DNA from: a virus | Strand: one strand, 5' to 3' | IMG/VR virus record: IMGVR_UViG_3300038312_000168 | Span: 1-64,000 of that record | Length of the DNA: 64,000 nt | Part shown: piece by piece, positions 1-57,110 of the stretch | How the letters are laid out: every line of letters begins with the position of its first letter | Position numbering within the stretch: position 1 is the stretch's first letter | Notes under the pieces: generated by a model | The model's database searches: none | What the model saw: only the letters and a program-made list of their open reading frames with translations | Told to the model about the DNA's origin: nothing | Position numbers and translations under genes: made by a program

Positions 1-33
1 GGGTGGGATTTAAAAAAATATAATATTATATTC

Positions 34-201
34 CTTACACGTGTAAGAATCATGTAAGATGGTCATTACATGAAATGCAATTTCATAAGTACATATGTAC
101 ATTATAATATGTACATAATATCCTTACGTGTAAGGATAATTATATTATCATTACACTATCCCCTTACGTGTAATGAATATCAAAATATCATTACGTGTAA
201 T
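34..201. repeat. AT-rich block with clustered TTAC..GTAA-type palindromes
   Basis: Perfect palindromes CTTACACGTGTAAG (34-47) and GTACATATGTAC (89-100); dyads CCTTAC-gt-GTAAGG (122-135), CTTAC-gt-GTAAT (163-174), ATTAC-gt-GTAAT (190-201) plus half-sites; same motif vocabulary recurs at 15.5-15.93 kb. Confidence 0.75.
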
Positions 202-1867: not shown

Positions 1868-2414
1868 TACTCTTACTTTTTTAAAAAAACTTTAAAAAAA
1901 CTTTGACTTTCTGATGTGTTACCAGGAGAAAAAAAGGAGGATTAATGAGAATATTTATGAGTATCTTTAACTGTAACGATGTTATATTGTATTGGAATTA
2001 CACGAATTGACGCCAACCAAAACGTGTAATAAATCCCGAACCATGAGGAAGTGAGGCACAGCCGAATTCAAACGACAAGGAGATGCAATGACATTACGAA
2101 TCAGATTTTGTGTAATCACCTCGTAGAAAGTAGTAACATCACGGATGAACGTGTAAGAAAATTCATTGTAAGGAATTGCATGGTAAGTCATGTGAACGTT
2201 GTTCTCCGTGGTGTCCTATATCTTAAGTTGTTGCGTGAATATTTATACCTTTTGGTTTAGATACTTCTCTTACATTGAATGAAAGTTGATTTAATGTGTA
2301 AGGAAGTTATTTTGCGTTACGTGTGTCATTGTGTGTGACTATTTTCTTACGCGATACTTCTTACCCTGAATGTCATGTAGGAAACAGTAGCAGAAACCTA
2401 TGTGAGAACCCATG

Positions 2415-2545
2415 CCACAATCAAAAAAACATGCTGGAAACATGCAGTTTTGATAGGTTTTAGAGGTATAACTTGCAAAAAAGGTATAAACATACCACCG
2501 TGATAGTATAGTCGTTAATTTGCATGTTTTACTCGAAGGAAATCG
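2415..2545 (+). repeat. copy B (most diverged) of five-copy intergenic element
   Basis: CCACAATCAAAAAAAC ... AACATACCACCGTGA ... CATGTTTTACTCGAAGGAAATCG aligns block by block with copy A (AAATATACCACCGTGA ... GATGTTTTACTCGAAGAATTG). Confidence 0.65.
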
Positions 2546-2669
2546 CTTTGTTTTTCTAAACCCACAGAACTTGATTTGAATTTCAAAAACTCCCCAAATA
2601 CCCAAGAAAACGCCCAACTCGGTAAGCCACGCCACGCCTCTCCTTCTTCTCGGTGTCCATGTGTGTCCA

Positions 2670-3140
2670 CTATTGTTTATCTTTGTTCATCAATGCCCCT
2701 TTTTCGACATCAATGTATATATTTGAGCATTGATAACCAGGGATGTTCATTGATGCTAGTTTGTGGTATTTTCGCTCATATGAGTAAAAAACCATGAAAG
2801 GCATCATCTCAATAATGGGATAAAGTTTTGACTTTTTGAATACCTGGCCGTGCAACACATAACCATCTGGCCGTGCAACGTGACCGGTGATTATCACCGT
2901 ATCAGCATAGGGTAATGTGAATAACGCGCGATCATAAACGGTGATTATTCTATCCGTTTTTTGATTCGCATTCCCTTTGTTTTGTGTCTGTTTTTTTAAT
3001 CTCCATAGATTAGCCGTATTTTGTTGTTGGTTACACCCTTGTAGATTGCGTATAATCGACGATCTCACATCAGGTAGGGTAAAAGTATCACCTGTAAAAT
3101 TGATACGCTTAAAACGCTTATAATCAGGTGATAGTATCAT
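2670..3140 (-). CDS. hypothetical protein (156 aa)
   Basis: ORF track, ATG start at 3140; no recognisable motifs. Confidence 0.5.
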   Translation of the reverse strand: MILSPDYKRFKRINFTGDTFTLPDVRSSIIRNLQGCNQQQNTANLWRLKKQTQNKGNANQKTDRIITVYDRALFTLPYADTVIITGHVARPDGYVLHGQVFKKSKLYPIIEMMPFMVFYSYERKYHKLASMNIPGYQCSNIYIDVEKGALMNKDKQ

Positions 3141-3538
3141 TGTATATTAGATAGGGTTTACTTTTACTTAAAGTATAGGAATCCTTATATGTTGGTAACA
3201 TAGGTATATAAACGGAGTATAAGCGTATCAGTTAGAATCTTTTATTTTGGGTTACGTTTATCAATTCAGGGTTATCTAGGTTATTTTTCTGTTTTTCATG
3301 TGACATTTCGATAGGTATAAATACTCTTGAGTATACCTCTATGTATCCCGTGGATACCCTAGCGTGTGGATAGGGTACGACGTAAGCAGAACCGGAGCGA
3401 AAGCCTATTCCAGTCTTTTACTTACCACCATTACATTACTATGTAGGATGCGGAAAGTCTCAAACAAGAGGATAAGGTAAGTAGTGCATGTGTATCTTTA
3501 ATGCGTAATGCAAGCGGATACGCCGGTATACAAATAGT

Positions 3539-3581
3539 GTGCTCCATCGTTTTAGACGTGAGATCAAATCTAATGGAGCAC
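3539..3581 (+). promoter_or_regulatory. intercistronic hairpin module 1
   Basis: Stem GTGCTCCAT/ATGGAGCAC, 25-nt loop containing TTTTAGACGTGAGATCAAAT; followed by CCC-taaat-GGG mini-hairpin and SD GGTAAGGAAGTG of 3610 gene. Confidence 0.6.
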
Positions 3582-6805: not shown

Positions 6806-7029
6806 CCTTTAAAGTTTATATTGTCGCATGGAAAAATGGAAGTAGTCAAATTGGAGTAAAATGCCTAGGTAAAAACTGGGAAAAACGTTTTGCATCAGAG
6901 ATTGATGATATTGATCAGGTTTTTGGCACTCAAATACCGCACAGAGTTATCGCTGATACTCCTGATGGATATAGGATTATGACTCCTTCAGAGGCGAAGA
7001 AAAAGGGATTTGAGTATAGATTTATTTAA
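6802..7029 (+). CDS. hypothetical protein (75 aa)
   Basis: ATGA start/stop overlap with upstream gene (translational coupling). Confidence 0.55.
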   Translation: MTFKVYIVAWKNGSSQIGVKCLGKNWEKRFASEIDDIDQVFGTQIPHRVIADTPDGYRIMTPSEAKKKGFEYRFI

Positions 7030-7100
7030 TTCTCTTTTACTTTTCATAAAGGTTAATGGGATTCATTAACCGTGAAGAAGTGCTAAGGAGATGAAGAAGA

Positions 7101-7412
7101 ATGTCGTTTGAATTGACGAATCAAGGATTTATGGCCAAAGTAGGAAATTATGAGATTGAGCATTACAGTAGTGGAGTGTTTGAAGATGATGTGAAAGTAA
7201 AGCGTAATGGAAAAGAATTGTTTACTATTGCGTTTCCCATCGTCTCACATGATTATAAAATACATCCTGTTATGATCATAGGAGATGAACATATCAATTT
7301 AGATGTTTTTGAAATGAGCAATTATCCCAACGATGATGGAATAGCTCAGGAAATGTATTACAACGAGATTTATGTGTATGTGCTGGAACAAATTATAAAG
7401 GAATTAGAATAA
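7101..7412 (+). CDS. hypothetical protein (103 aa)
   Basis: ORF track; SD TAAGGAGATG upstream. Confidence 0.55.
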   Translation: MSFELTNQGFMAKVGNYEIEHYSSGVFEDDVKVKRNGKELFTIAFPIVSHDYKIHPVMIIGDEHINLDVFEMSNYPNDDGIAQEMYYNEIYVYVLEQIIKELE

Positions 7413-7483
7413 CTTTAAAAAACTTTAATCTTTTCGTGTTGTTAAGTAGATGTGGTTAATGGGATTATTGGAGATGTGAGATT

Positions 7484-7963
7484 ATGAAGGATTACAGAGA
7501 GTTTACAGTATTTGAAAGAGAAACGATTGATGATATTTGTATCGAAATGCACAAACAACGCTTATCACGTTGTAAAATATGTGTAAATATGCATAGGTAT
7601 AACAATGTGGGATTATGGTTTAAATTTGATAATGATCCGTATTATGCATACCCTTTAACCCTTGAAAAAGCGATAGAATCATTTGTAAAAGAAATACCAA
7701 TAGAACTATTCGATTTTAATTATGATGATAGTTATCCTGATTATTCCGACGATGATATTTTTAAGGAGATTGATGAGATTCAGGAATATGAATCTGATAT
7801 GGTTTTACACAATGTAAAACAGATTCTTTATTACCTGTATATTGGTGATTTGGAAACTATCAAAACGGCACTTGATGATATTGATTATTGTTATCAAGCG
7901 GGGAAAGATTATAATGATGAATTAGAGACATTGAAAGAAATTGTAAAGGAATATACAAGTTAA
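7484..7963 (+). CDS. hypothetical acidic protein (159 aa)
   Basis: ORF track; SD GGAGATGTG upstream; last gene of + array. Confidence 0.6.
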   Translation: MKDYREFTVFERETIDDICIEMHKQRLSRCKICVNMHRYNNVGLWFKFDNDPYYAYPLTLEKAIESFVKEIPIELFDFNYDDSYPDYSDDDIFKEIDEIQEYESDMVLHNVKQILYYLYIGDLETIKTALDDIDYCYQAGKDYNDELETLKEIVKEYTS

Positions 7964-7968
7964 GTTTA

Positions 7969-8005
7969 GGTTAAGTCAACTTCGGTTGCCTTAACCACTT
8001 TTTTT
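7969..8005 (+). terminator. hairpin plus T7 run ending the + strand small-gene array
   Basis: GGTTAAG-tCAAC-ttcg-GTTGc-CTTAACC nested stem (7969-7996) followed by T7 (7999-8005), 6 nt after stop of 7484..7963. Confidence 0.5.
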
Positions 8006-8032
8006 ATTCAATTTTGGTGTTGCTACGAAAGT

Positions 8033-8277
8033 GTTGATTAGTGTTACGGGATAATACTTTTCGCTTTGTGGTTGGATGTGGTTACGTGTGTTGATTTTAG
8101 TATCGTGAGTGTTACCAGAGCCACATAGCGTTGATTTGAGACAGTTTAGTATCAGGATGTAGTTTAGTATAGGGAGAAGGGAGATCGTCGATTAGAAGAA
8201 GCATGTTTCTAAGGGTATTTGGTTGATTGAGTTTTGATTTAGGTTTATTTTGGGAATTGTATAATTGTAGGGTTGAT
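8033..8277. repeat. cluster of GTTGAT(T) iteron-like repeats
   Basis: GTTGAT at 8033, 8090, 8130, 8222, 8272 and TTGATT at 8234; accompanied by GTGTTAC (x2) and GTTTAGTAT (x2) direct repeats; ORF-free region. Confidence 0.6.
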
Positions 8278-8500
8278 AATGTTAAATCATTATGGATAGT
8301 GGAAGTGCTACTGTGGTGTGGTAGTGGTGATTATGAGACATAGAGTCATTAATACTTTAAGGTTAATTTGGGTTTGGAATTGATACTAAAGTAGAATAAC
8401 TATCCTCACCTGTCATTACCCTGAACTCGCTATTCGATTTTCAGCATAATCATTTTTGTTATATATTTCTAACATTGTTCATATTAATCCGATCAATAAA

Positions 8501-8560
8501 TCTATATAGTTCTATAGAATCTATATAGTTCTCTATAGTGCTCTATAGGTCACTATAGTT
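8501..8560. repeat. six tandem ~10-bp units each carrying a CTATAG/CTATATAG palindrome
   Basis: tctatatagt|tctatagaat|ctatatagtt|ctctatagtg|ctctataggt|cactatagtt: helical-phase (10 bp) spacing. Confidence 0.75.
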
Positions 8561-9183
8561 ATTGTTAGGTTATCCCTAACTATCACCATATCACCAAACA
8601 TACATGATATCTCACGATATGTATGTTGCTTATCTATCATGATCTATCATGGTTCGAGTTGCGGTAAATGGATATTCCCCGCAATTATGAGGAGATTAGA
8701 GTATTCGACAAATAGTCGATAATCCTTTGAGTATATCGAATGGATACCGCATAGATACGCAATGACGATACCAACATAGCGTCATTATCGTATCACCCTT
8801 CAGACTGCATAGAAAACAGGGCATAATGAGCAGGGATTAGAACGCTATACAATGAGGGATTGATGATAGACACAAGCAAAAATGAGATCAAGTTAATTCA
8901 GTTTTACTTTTACTCTGTCATACCCATATCACTACCCTATGAGACGTACATAGTGCGTCTACAATGCGCGCACTCACCTAGATGATATGCGAGTATCCCT
9001 ATGCTGATATGTGACAGTATAGGGTTACTGTGTGGCTATGTTGTTACCATCTCATGTATGAGATAGACCACCATTATTCACCAATGTTTGTGACCATGTA
9101 TACCTATGTGCATTGATGAACATATGTGAGCATTGATGTATTGATTCGTACATCTACGAAAAGTAGAGACCGGGGGTGCGGTT

Positions 9184-9217
9184 AGACACCTTCGGTTAAG
9201 TGTCTCAAAAATTTTTT
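9184..9217 (+). terminator. hairpin plus T-run in ORF-free region (terminator-like)
   Basis: AGACAC-cttcggttaa-GTGTCT (9184-9205) followed by caaaaaTTTTTT (T6 at 9212-9217); preceded by a G+C-rich stretch GAGACCGGGGGTGCGG. Confidence 0.3.
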
Positions 9218-9319
9218 ATAAAAAAATAACTAAATCTGGGTAAAAACCCCTAAATAAACCTATTTCTCAAAAAAGAGTTAAAACCCATTACTTCTCTATT
9301 CTTCAAAATTGCAACACTA

Positions 9320-9454
9320 TCAACAATACTCATAACGCTCTGCACATTCTGGATTTGAACACCGATACATCTTCATAATATAAACTTCTGTACCAATTTT
9401 AAACCCTTTCTTACCACAATAAACAATCAATGAACCACAACGTGAGCAATACAC
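9320..9454 (-). CDS. small zinc-ribbon protein (44 aa, below track cutoff)
   Basis: Open frame directly downstream of 9488 gene; CSRC ... CSNPEC cysteine pairs; only a GTG start (9454), SD AGGTGG is ~16 nt upstream, so weak. Confidence 0.3.
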   Translation of the reverse strand: MYCSRCGSLIVYCGKKGFKIGTEVYIMKMYRCSNPECAERYEYC

Positions 9455-9487
9455 TTTCTTAATTGTAACACCACCTGATTATCATTT

Positions 9488-9895
9488 TTAATCCTTTTTT
9501 CTTTCATATACCTCATTGTAACACTTCTCTGCATCATATATGCACTTTACAATAACCTCTTCACTTACTTTAGTATACAACATAACTGACAATAACGAAA
9601 TCAAACCAGGAATAGTAGCAACATACTCATCTTTATCTGCATGATACGCTAAAATGCCCGATTCTGCAAGATCTTGTAATTGTACCCTGAATGGTAGAGT
9701 ATCATTAAAAAAAACACCACATAACAACGTAGTAAAGGCATTATTTCCACGATTGGTAAGAATATACTCATCATTATCAGTTTTGGTCATAAACCCATAA
9801 TCAACAAAGGTGGGAAACATGGCAATTACTTGTTTGGTAAGATGCTCATCTTGGTTTCCTAACTTCACATTCAAAAAATCAATAAACGAAATCAT
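9488..9895 (-). CDS. tandem-repeat winged-helix-like protein, paralog 1 (135 aa)
   Basis: Track start 9916 is GTG; ATG 9895 has SD GGAGAG 8 nt upstream. Clear similarity to 9937..10305 (..PT....M.K.....Y..T..G..AF .. DKDEY..T..G....LS). Confidence 0.6.
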   Translation of the reverse strand: MISFIDFLNVKLGNQDEHLTKQVIAMFPTFVDYGFMTKTDNDEYILTNRGNNAFTTLLCGVFFNDTLPFRVQLQDLAESGILAYHADKDEYVATIPGLISLLSVMLYTKVSEEVIVKCIYDAEKCYNEVYERKKD

Positions 9896-9936
9896 AATCT
9901 TACTCTCCAGTAACACGAATCAACATAATCGTAACA

Positions 9937-10305
9937 CTACACCCAATACTCTTTTATAATCCCTATAATATCCTCATTTGTTATTTCATATTGAATCAAA
10001 TAGGACAATGTAGCATAGATACCTTTATTGGTAATCATATATTCATCTTTATCTCTAAACCGAAGCAATTCACATGATTCAAGCACAGAACCTTGATCAA
10101 CACCAACACAGTCCTTTATTATAAGTCTATGCATCAAATAGAAAAATGCCTCACCGCCCTTTTCTGTAAACATATATTTTCCATCGTTAGCCTTAATCAT
10201 GATTCTATGTTCAGCAAGGGTAGGAAGTAAACTGTTAACTTTACTATGAAATTCATGTTTATCATCCTCAAACTCCGTTTCAATAAACGTCTTAAATGTT
10301 ACCAT
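9937..10305 (-). CDS. tandem-repeat winged-helix-like protein, paralog 2 (122 aa)
   Basis: Track start 10326 is TTG; ATG at 10305. Paralog of 9488..9895. Confidence 0.6.
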   Translation of the reverse strand: MVTFKTFIETEFEDDKHEFHSKVNSLLPTLAEHRIMIKANDGKYMFTEKGGEAFFYLMHRLIIKDCVGVDQGSVLESCELLRFRDKDEYMITNKGIYATLSYLIQYEITNEDIIGIIKEYWV

Positions 10306-10438
10306 AACTAATACTTGTAACCCCAATCTATAAAAAGATTACTATTTGCATCTCTTTATAAAATTTTTTCCAAAAAAATTACAAAACATGGGTAAAAACC
10401 CATAAATTAAGCAATTAACCCAAAAAAAGAAGTAAAAA

Positions 10439-10849
10439 TTACTTACTCCACCATTCTACACAATATTTCCCATCTCTTCTTTCCCACATCGACGGATCAA
10501 ATCTAACCTCACATTTATAATCTTCAGCAAGTCTACAAACCTTATCAAAAACTTCATCAGGTGTAATTTCTCTACCAATCATAGACTGATAAAGAGTATC
10601 ATAATACACCTTATTTTCATTTTTATCAACAAATTCCTGTTTCACTTTCGCAAACCAAACACAATGTTCAGTTAGGTCAAAGTCAGCAGTAGCGTAACAA
10701 TTAACGGAGCGAATATCCTTGAAACACTTTGATAACTGTTCAACGTTCTCAACATACTTATTTAAATCGTTAATTACGTGTTTAACATCATAATTTAATG
10801 ATCCAAGCCCAAATAAAACATCTTTATGCAAAATAATCACCATAACCAT
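10439..10849 (-). CDS. hypothetical protein (136 aa)
   Basis: ORF track, ATG start. Confidence 0.55.
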   Translation of the reverse strand: MVMVIILHKDVLFGLGSLNYDVKHVINDLNKYVENVEQLSKCFKDIRSVNCYATADFDLTEHCVWFAKVKQEFVDKNENKVYYDTLYQSMIGREITPDEVFDKVCRLAEDYKCEVRFDPSMWERRDGKYCVEWWSK

Positions 10850-55945: not shown

Positions 55946-56184
55946 TCTTTATCACTCTTATCGATGTTGTATTTGTTGAACTGACTGTAAGAATACAAAG
56001 GACACTGTAACTGCTCACACTCTACTCTACCATCTTCACAATATCCCTGACAATCGTAGCAATAAGCACTTATCGCTTCCTTGCGTGTGATATGTTTACC
56101 TTCAAGAAAATTAATAAGATTGGTTTTACCACTATAACTCTTACCATGTTTCTTGATGAGTTTAATGGTTGATTTGTTATCCAT
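55942..56184 (-). CDS. hypothetical Cys-rich protein (80 aa)
   Basis: CYDCQGYCEDGRVECEQLQC cluster; overlaps both neighbours. Confidence 0.5.
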   Translation of the reverse strand: MDNKSTIKLIKKHGKSYSGKTNLINFLEGKHITRKEAISAYCYDCQGYCEDGRVECEQLQCPLYSYSQFNKYNIDKSDKE

Positions 56185-57110
56185 TACGCACCTCTCTTAC
56201 CAAGAATACGCATGAGTTTGAAGGCCATGTTTGCAAAGGTAATCTCAGCATTAGCACCGTATACCATTCTGTAATCTGATTCTGCAATGATCTCAATGGC
56301 AGTAATCTTATCAGAGGCAGACAGTGTAGTATCATTCCACACTTTCAGGTAGATTTGGAATGTAATGCTCCGGTAATCAACCGTGTTACTATTCCACAGT
56401 TTACGTGCTTCGGTGATTTTCCTACCCTTAATTAACGTGTAAAGTTCATCTGCAACATTGATATTCTTCTTAGTGTCTAATTCACCAAGATTCTTGTAAA
56501 TATCAAGTGCCTTTACCATTGAACGAATATCAGGGTAATTAACATCGATGATCTCATTTAGACTTATATCGTCAATGGTAATGTTCTCTTCGGTGCAGAT
56601 GTGTCTTAATCGTGTAAGAATCTCATTACGTGCAGGTTTACCAAAAGATACAACCTTACACCTGGAACGGAGTGGTTCAATAATCTTACTAATTACATTA
56701 CACGTAAGGATGAATCGACAGCGAGAAGAATACTCCTCCATAATGTTACGAAGAATATTCTGTGCATCAGGTGTAAGTCCATCTGCTTCATCTAAATGCA
56801 CAATCTTAGGCACATCAGACTTGAATGATACAGTAGATGCAAATGCTTTTACCTTTTCACGCACCGTATCAATACCACGCTCATCAGACGCATTAAGATA
56901 AAGTCTATCAGCATCAAGTTCATTGATGATAATTTTAGCAAGTGTGGTCTTACCTGTTCCTGCACTTGACTCGAAAATCAGATTGGGAAGGGAAAAAGGA
57001 TTCTCCCTTACAACTTTGCGTAGTCCAGTAATTACAGTGGTATCATTACCAATGTAATCCTCAAACGTTTGTGGGCGATATTTCTCCACAAAAAGTTTGT
57101 TGGTAATCAT
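56184..57110 (-). CDS. rfc: replication factor C (clamp loader) small-subunit homolog (308 aa)
   Basis: FVEKYRPQTFEDYIGN, SAGTGKTT (Walker A), HLDEADGL (Walker B), EPLRSRC (SRC motif). Confidence 0.92.
   Translation of the reverse strand: MITNKLFVEKYRPQTFEDYIGNDTTVITGLRKVVRENPFSLPNLIFESSAGTGKTTLAKIIINELDADRLYLNASDERGIDTVREKVKAFASTVSFKSDVPKIVHLDEADGLTPDAQNILRNIMEEYSSRCRFILTCNVISKIIEPLRSRCKVVSFGKPARNEILTRLRHICTEENITIDDISLNEIIDVNYPDIRSMVKALDIYKNLGELDTKKNINVADELYTLIKGRKITEARKLWNSNTVDYRSITFQIYLKVWNDTTLSASDKITAIEIIAESDYRMVYGANAEITFANMAFKLMRILGKRGA

Follow-up and report, generated by a model that had tools for sequence, protein, structure and literature searches.

Positions 7964-9319 of the window analysed here, that is, of the first 64 kb of the 69,364-base IMG/VR virus record IMGVR_UViG_3300038312_000168, constitute the largest coding gap of a genome that is tightly packed elsewhere, and lie between two convergent small-gene arrays with an end signal on either side. 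As judged by comparison with its relatives, this region is real, conserved and modular non-coding DNA made up of invariant blocks and swappable repeat cassettes, and it appears to belong to no known family. With respect to its function, a cis-acting DNA docking platform for proteins is tentatively ranked first, most likely serving as a replication origin or as another site of nucleoprotein assembly of that kind, and a locus for non-coding RNA (ncRNA) is ranked second and considered less probable.

Relatives of the region were gathered via the flanking 142-amino-acid (aa) protein and later by using an invariant hairpin (see below) as a DNA pattern, and together these queries recovered some 15 distinct versions of it from metagenomes; a search with the left-flank protein returned no relatives. 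The collection comprises the near-complete genomes G001 (L003) and G002 (L020/L042), one 9.7-kb contig (L038), a cluster of short contigs (L006-L015, hereafter the cluster) and the single contigs L017, L021, L022 and L023. At least five lineages are represented, which are 68-80% identical to the window across the region. When the window is compared with G001, divergence amounts to 0.47 at the four-fold degenerate sites of neighbouring genes, to 0.25 in the left arm of the region, 0.27 in the block at 8389-8500, 0.35 in the right arm and 0.10 in the end module at 9208-9309, with 0.42 being reached in a variable segment (8300-8388) and 0.66, the level of unrelated sequence, in the cassette core (8501-8560). 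Since the values of 0.25-0.35 are lower than the 0.47 at four-fold sites, and given the invariant blocks, parts of the region are by this measure under purifying selection, with the caveat that the comparison is affected by mosaic recombination, the adjacent genes at 9428-10363 differing by only 0.03-0.07. The comparison with related genomes that an earlier note on this DNA had suggested as a check thus speaks for conservation and not for drift, and its general claim of a functional non-coding region, as opposed to drifting DNA or a dead gene, is supported by the presence of the region in all relatives, its non-coding nature throughout and its invariant blocks.

In agreement with the same note, no open reading frame (ORF) of 60 aa or more exists in 7964-9319, the longest ones having 42 and 41 aa. 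In alignments with G001 the flanking genes display a strong three-base periodicity of substitutions (p 1e-5 to 1e-8) in a test that is independent of the genetic code, and the three aligned parts of the region are devoid of codon periodicity (25/18/18, 11/6/8 and 51/53/56) and contain many insertions or deletions (indels) of 1-2 nucleotides (nt). The region is non-coding in every lineage examined. The earlier note allowed that homologues might show it to be a decayed gene remnant, and minus-strand frames are indeed open in the left arm of L003 (127 aa), L020 (140 aa) and L017 (110 aa), as are plus-strand frames of 85-106 codons in some relatives. However, these frames lack periodicity in all of the 15 pairs compared, tolerate 1-nt indels, are interrupted by stops or shifted in other relatives, are of low complexity and have no convincing starts. 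Moreover, when ORF translations from the rest of the genome were compared with the region by tblastn, no paralogue was among the best 40 of 700 matches, these 40 all being relatives' own frames, and in L005 and L006 no gene had been called in the region. A decayed gene is therefore extremely unlikely; the long minus-strand frames of the left arm are attributed to base composition and chance, and the idea of a conserved small ORF was rejected as well, there being none that is conserved among the relatives. At the right border, an ORF of 44 aa (9320-9454) has a zinc-ribbon-like spacing (CxxC...CxxxxC) and resembles other zinc-ribbon-type mini-proteins of the arrays; it sits in a 110-nt insertion (window 9318-9454) that is missing from every relative, and was left uncalled by the gene callers in L005. 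Because of this spacing and its location in a virus-specific insertion, a right border at 9319 is reasonable.

The region is organised in modules. Its centre has a G + C content of 27-28%, and it is here that the composition of the two strands is switched, the skew changing its sign at 8375-8450. Here, a conserved block (8389-8500) contains the anchor CTATCCTCACC (8400-8410), present in all lineages, and oligo-T runs (8437-8460), and is followed by the cassette core (8501-8560) with six (C)TATAG palindromes (Tandem Repeats Finder: period 10, 6.1 copies). This array holds four of the eight CTATAG sites of the genome as well as both CTATATAG sites. The phased CTATAG array described earlier is thus a genuine period-10 tandem repeat, though as a lineage-specific allele and not as a conserved element. 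Seven lineages have 253-256 nt from the anchor sequence TCCTCACC (8403) to the invariant hairpin (8659); L038, with one extra repeat unit of 10-11 nt, has 267 nt, corresponding to one more helical turn. The middle approximately 120 nt between these two points exist in at least four alleles that are identical to one another only at random level, each with a helically phased set of repeats or palindromes peculiar to it: 10-bp CTATAG repeats in the window, L020 and L038 (expanded in the latter); A-tracts, TTGTCGC repeats and the palindrome TTGTCGCGACAA in L003 and the cluster; GTATC/GATAC dyads in L017; and TTCGTTAACGAA together with ATTAAT in very AT-rich DNA in L022. Within the second allele the palindrome is altered symmetrically, L003 having TTGTTGCAACAA where the cluster has TTGTCGCGACAA. 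Avoidance of CTATAG as a restriction site was also considered and rejected, as eight copies are observed versus 8.3 expected.

The best conserved element is a 29-nt block at 8659-8688, TTGCGG-TAAATGGATATTCC-CCGCAATTA, which forms a hairpin with a fixed loop (TTGCGG/CCGCAA, -10.5 kcal, z -2.1). It is near-identical in 12 aligned copies, with seven of the nine base pairs in the RNAalifold consensus unchanged and one pair altered in a single copy, while two loop positions vary (Y) in L003. As a DNA pattern it was matched in seven metagenome stretches and in none of 185,579 cellular genomes. The cassette core and this block are separated by an inverted repeat GTTAGG-N5-CCTAAC at 8564-8580 (-6.3 kcal, z -3.1), the stem of which is kept in window-type lineages with differing loops (TTATC in the window, TTGAG in L011, TTAAA in L020 and TTCAA in L017), by a hairpin AACATAC...GTATGTT at 8597-8627 (-8.9 kcal, z -2.0), and by two copies of the direct repeat ATCTATCATG at 8632-8651, for which L011 and L017 have other sequence but which most lineages retain.

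To the left of the centre, the array of plus-strand small genes is closed by a hairpin GGTTAAGTCAAC-TTCG-GTTGCCTTAACC followed by T7 (7969-8006, plus strand; -13.2 kcal, z -4.15), whose stem and T-run are kept in L003, L006 and L008 with a variable loop (TTCG, TTAT or TAAA). The adjoining left arm (8007-8299, in its broader extent 8007-8400) is C-poor, G/T-rich non-coding DNA, the C content of the plus strand being no more than 7-10% in each of the lineages, and has a GC skew of +0.4 to +0.75; it gives no RNA-structure signal, and a block of about 35 nt in it (8160-8194, GTAGTTTAGTATRGGGAGAAGGGAGATCRTCGATT) is conserved in all lineages. The earlier note had listed six GTTGAT(T) iterons in the left arm. 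GTTGAT is indeed an enriched repeat, with five exact copies (8034, 8091, 8131, 8223 and 8273) as opposed to 0.48 in dinucleotide shuffles of 8007-8400 (P about 0.002), but there are five copies and not six, and the element is lineage-specific: L017 has five and L020 four copies, L003 only one, and L006 and L008 none. Accordingly, GTTGAT repeats are found in the window, L017 and L020, and ACAAGT repeats in L003, the cluster and L020. The shorter word TTGAT is one-directional in the left arm, with 11 occurrences on the plus and two on the minus strand. The companion repeats GTGTTAC (two copies), TTTAGTAT (three), GCATTGATG (two) and ATCTATCATG (two), some of which had been pointed out before, all exceed the level of the shuffles in what are post hoc tests. 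According to alignment gaps and 6-mer counts, the subsequent segment 8300-8388 is variable, the window being without about 100 nt that carry five to six ACAAGT repeats in the relatives and having TGTGGT repeats there instead.

On the right side, alignment of the relatives resolves positions 8689-9048 into a mosaic of short conserved blocks, such as GAGGGATTGATGATA at 8854-8868, and swapped cassettes; two alleles exist at 8690-8745, and different lineages often carry different hairpins at the same positions. The strongest hairpin of the whole region (8992-9029, -19.9 kcal, z -5.1) is located here and was missing from the earlier list. It is followed by a conserved right-end block (9049-9165) with ATTGATG words and two hairpins, ATCTCA-N4-TGAGAT (9049-9064, z -1.3, loop variable) and TTCGTA-N4-TACGAA (9145-9160, z -1.3). 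The inverted repeats reported in the earlier note hence exist, whereas the strength ascribed to them is mostly modest (z -1.3 to -3.1). The G + C-rich hairpin with T-run that had been placed at 9184-9217 is likewise present (-17.6, z -2.4). It belongs to a segment (9166-9229) in which it precedes a palindromic A5-T6-AT-A7 run, and it is this run that is conserved in all lineages and that, from its sequence, can end transcripts from either direction. The stability of the hairpin, in turn, is not conserved (z -3.4 to +0.6) and is high only in window-type lineages, for which reason a conserved plus-strand terminator hairpin at the right end was rejected. The array of minus-strand genes is closed by a gene-end module at 9208-9309 (minus strand) with a hairpin GGGTAAAAACCC at 9238-9249 and minus-strand T-runs. 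The module recurs with 75% identity at 10360-10464, where the copy received a terminator-like call, and as one of several repeated gene-end modules it can be likened to the promoter early stem-loop (PeSL) cassettes of T4-type phages. Like the hyperplastic regions of those phages, the region as a whole has short cassettes exchanged between conserved stem-loops in an early-gene setting; in contrast to them, its cassettes are gene-free and its interior is constant in length around invariant blocks.

The location of the region, which is flanked by the end signals of two arrays that converge on it, also fits a passive buffer, that is, a termination zone and recombination junkyard of intercistronic-module and tandem-repeat remnants, in which only the end signals would have a function and recent recombination would account for the apparent conservation. 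The region is highly mosaic, the contigs of co-occurring strains end at cassette borders, the adjacent segment 9428-10363 has clearly been exchanged recently, and the intergenic DNA of viruses often contains 10-bp tandem arrays. Nevertheless, a 29-nt block is invariant and several blocks of 15-35 nt are nearly so amid lineages that differ by 25-35% around them, the spacing is near-constant across unrelated cassettes, all lineages have kept the left arm poor in C, and 1.2 kb is far more than termination would need in such a tightly packed genome. Such a buffer is hence considered unlikely.

The interpretation ranked second is that the region is transcribed into RNA. By this account it would encode one or more ncRNAs, most likely on the plus strand: a C-poor transcript starting at about 8010 and ending at the oligo-T runs at 8437-8460, and a second, hairpin-rich RNA from about 8590 to the T6 run at 9212-9217, in which the loop of the invariant hairpin would be a recognition site. 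In line with this, the region is closed by a plus-strand end signal (hairpin and T6) in addition to the one that terminates the gene array at 7969-8006. Several hairpins have constant stems and variable loops, the loop of one is invariant, a given position may be taken by unlike hairpins depending on the lineage, and the excess of G over C and of T over A in the left arm is what would be expected from heavy plus-strand transcription without coding constraint. In addition, one pair of the TTCGTA hairpin is G.T in L023 and G-C in L021 as compared to A-T in the others, a series fitting compensation of the plus-strand RNA type, albeit as a single case.

However, a scan of 7000-10500 on both strands against Rfam, the check for structured ncRNA suggested earlier, gave no match at E<=1, and ARAGORN found no tRNA or tmRNA genes in the region. 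In a sliding RNAalifold scan the structure conservation index (SCI) was mostly 0.15-0.6, with hairpin signals equal on both strands, and the alignment of 14 sequences yielded 71 pairs in 702 columns with a covariation term of +0.85, on the basis of which (together with the low SCI) a single large RNA fold was rejected. Neither a conserved multi-helix fold nor compensatory support was found across the alignment beyond the anecdotal pair in L021. The helices formed by Watson-Crick pairs only are nearly invariant, with one G.T and no A.C, and thus do not allow for a strand call. Furthermore, the stability of the terminal hairpin is not conserved, a conserved TATA-type promoter was not recognised, and neither a 10-bp periodic palindrome array nor a swapped cassette of constrained length makes much sense in RNA. 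Phage RNAs such as GOLLD and ROOL (Rfam) resemble the region in being about 0.5-1 kb in size, gene-free, conserved and virus-borne, but the features by which they are recognised, namely an Rfam match, a conserved multi-helix fold and covariation, are lacking here. Taken together, an ncRNA locus is a possible, if doubtful, interpretation. Several more specific candidates were dropped: RNAalifold suggested a G.U-rich helix of 12 bp at 8857-8897, which is unstable (z +1.0); a C/D-box small RNA, suspected by eye, has TGATGA while CTGA is depleted (two versus 4.5 expected); the direct repeats are at most 10-23 nt long, exact ones only 8-10 nt, and so fall short of the approximately 25-40 nt of a CRISPR-like array; and for a T7-type promoter, as which CACTATAG and TATAGGGAGA might be read, no candidate single-subunit RNA polymerase was seen among the scanned ORFs of at least 250 aa, several ORFs of this size having been left unscanned or without family match and no profile search for RNA polymerases having been made.

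The DNA docking platform is ranked before the ncRNA because periodic palindromes, symmetric changes within them, expansion by whole repeat units and fixed spacing are properties of double-stranded DNA sites. The two interpretations are not mutually exclusive, since some phage origins are transcribed. In the proposed mechanism, the end signals of the two convergent early operons would shield the region from their transcription, the allele-specific repeats would bind an allele-specific viral protein, and the invariant sequences on the flank, namely the block with the TTGCGG hairpin and the repeat ATCTATCATG, would bind conserved factors or form hairpins upon unwinding. The fixed distance between anchor and hairpin would keep the binding partners in register, and the viral replisome, i.e., family B DNA polymerase, replication factor C (RFC), primase and helicase, might then be loaded at the region.

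A number of observations weigh against an origin or docking site. The cumulative GC skew, which the earlier note had proposed as a check for an origin or terminus, has a local peak at 8-9 kb, with its global maximum at 39-40 kb and its minimum at 68-69 kb; since it follows gene orientation genome-wide, it is confounded and provides no evidence of either. The repeat units measure only 6-10 bp, those of the left arm are unevenly spaced, no initiator gene adjoins the region, and in the three near-complete genomes available no protein, neighbours included, was found to co-vary with the cassette allele; the sole gene common to G000 and G002 and missing from G001 has no recognisable domain, and no candidate possesses a DNA-binding domain. 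Origins are more often located where genes diverge or next to genes for replication, and the latter lie about 30 kb from the region. Phased CTATAG arrays occur at 49 loci in other viral contigs of IMG/VR, all in ORF-free gaps and several of them beside terminase or primase/helicase genes, but they were rejected as a special widespread element, as the control palindrome GTATAC yields 58 such loci; they are thus generic tandem repeats and are weak evidence when taken alone. Finally, none of the specific roles named in the earlier note (origin or terminus, packaging site, structured ncRNA) was confirmed.

Amongst known systems, the iteron-type origins of phages and plasmids, such as lambda ori, P1 oriR and the non-coding, transcribed ori of the lactococcal phage c2, come close to the region: they are gene-free, have an AT-rich centre, short direct and inverted repeat arrays and helical phasing, and their specificity differs between related lineages while the flanks are conserved. 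The region differs from them in having units of 6-10 bp instead of 17-22 bp, in the lack of an adjacent or co-varying initiator, in its position at a convergent junction about 30 kb away from the replication genes and in its probably archaeal host (see below). In archaeal Orc1/Cdc6 origins, origin recognition box (ORB) or mini-ORB repeats with a TTCC...GAA core, e.g., TTCCAGTGGAACT, flank an AT-rich unwinding element (PMC1904270). The archaeal setting, the AT-rich centre between repeat-bearing arms and the size of about 1 kb are shared by the region; in contrast, it contains no ORB-type (TTCC-N4-GAA) boxes, of which three are present in the whole genome without forming a cluster, and no orc1/cdc6 gene was seen among the scanned proteins, the neighbours being small proteins without such domains, which again weighs against an origin of this kind.

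A further possibility would be a new two-part viral replicator or regulatory RNA locus in archaeal viruses. The C-poor, G-rich transcript of the left arm would hybridise stably to its template and prime DNA synthesis at the AT-rich, allele-specific cassette, with the invariant hairpin block loading the viral helicase-primase; or else the right arm would be a novel viral RNA of about 0.6 kb with the invariant loop as its active site. This scheme is regarded as improbable.

Phased short repeats and palindromes are also reminiscent of the concatemer junctions and terminal-repeat regions of T7/T3-type and rV5-type phages, which are likewise gene-poor and contain hairpins, and in seven unrelated viruses such arrays lie beside the large terminase gene. 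A packaging site or the physical genome ends, in the form of a concatemer junction with short repeat arrays, might therefore be sought here. Yet the break points of two independent assemblies of the virus both fall within window 1-113, the gene for head morphogenesis and presumably also the terminase gene are found at 61-69 kb, no terminal repeat maps to the region, and the region is assembled without interruption in G000, G001 and G002, all of which renders this explanation very improbable. Of the 10-bp palindromic-hexamer arrays in unrelated viral contigs (L024-L130, IMG/VR), one sub-family has conserved flanks, and several arrays adjoin large terminase genes at contig ends.

To our knowledge, the cis-acting sites of archaeal tailed viruses, including their origins and especially those of methanogen viruses, are essentially unmapped. 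The region thus offers a concrete, conserved and experimentally tractable candidate, in which the natural allelic variants of a cassette of fixed length could serve as specificity mutants. Were it an origin, shuttle vectors for methanogens could be built from it; if it were an RNA locus, it would represent a new class of viral RNA; and if it were neither, it would still be a clear case of modular evolution in viral non-coding DNA.

The virus, which is uncultured, is probably archaeal and tailed, as its gene content suggests. Among its products are a tape-measure protein, a tail tube protein, an HK97-type capsid protein and a Mu F-like head protein (gene at 61.6-62.5 kb), as well as a family B DNA polymerase, a ribonucleotide reductase and a DUF3987 helicase. 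An archaeal host is assumed because of an RFC small-subunit homologue (window 56184-57110, minus strand, E = 5.5e-67), the family B polymerase, for which the best match in a cultured virus is a Halorubrum tailed virus with 28% identity, and a methanogen-type thymidylate synthase ThyA (167.6 bits, below the cut-off of 174.55). The combination of RFC and family B polymerase suggests an archaeal-type clamp-loader replisome, and the RFC gene is followed by an ORF of 263 aa, a PCNA-like size, without family match. A scan of cellular genomes with ThyA yielded no match for assigning a host, and near and distant DNA searches of 50,697 phage records gave no matches either. The source samples of the related contigs are, as we take it from record and sample names, mostly anaerobic digesters or fermentations; the virus is represented, for example, in the samples of ERZ724025 and of JGI 3300009658, 3300009667 and 3300012949. 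The IMG/VR record has a terminal overlap of 113 bases, and an independent ENA assembly (69,306 = 69,251 + 55) breaks within the same approximately 100 nt (window 1-113), which are rich in palindromes; this stretch may represent the physical ends or the packaging start of the genome.

Another stretch of note lies at 2009-3578, upstream of the plus-strand small-gene array. Its identity to G001 amounts to 77-78%, but its substitutions are without codon periodicity (94/93/107) and indels of 1-2 nt are numerous. It is probably a second long conserved non-coding region despite containing ORFs of 98 and 156 aa. The GGATAC dyads mentioned in the earlier note are present in it at 3343-3357 and about 3515-3530, and GGATAC is not enriched in 7964-9319 (one copy, P = 0.3). 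The two regions have far more 10-12-mers in common than 7964-9319 shares with any other part of the genome; homology between them was nevertheless rejected, as the excess of short words is accompanied by nothing alignable. The 13-mer GAGATCGTCGATT, with the dyad core ATCG-N-CGAT, is found once in each of the two regions in inverted orientation (8181-8193, plus strand, and 3054-3066, minus strand). The inverted pair is kept in G001, and G002 has only the copy in 7964-9319, so that the pair occurs in two of three genomes; it could represent a shared binding site or mediate a 5'-3' pairing of the array transcript.

With respect to the neighbouring genes, the segment 9428-10363 contains two winged-helix-like paralogues (9488-10326) that are 95-97% identical to G001, with a four-fold divergence of 0.03-0.07 as compared to 0.47 elsewhere, which indicates a recent exchange. 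They have no DNA match in G002. The flanking 142-aa protein has a homologue with 74% identity (L016:197-673) whose translation agrees with the protein on record only when TGA codes for tryptophan, and the same gene is present twice on this 2-kb contig. The first bases of L022 (1-40) are an artefact, consisting of Illumina adapter sequence (…GTTCAGACGTGTGCTCTTCCGATCT).

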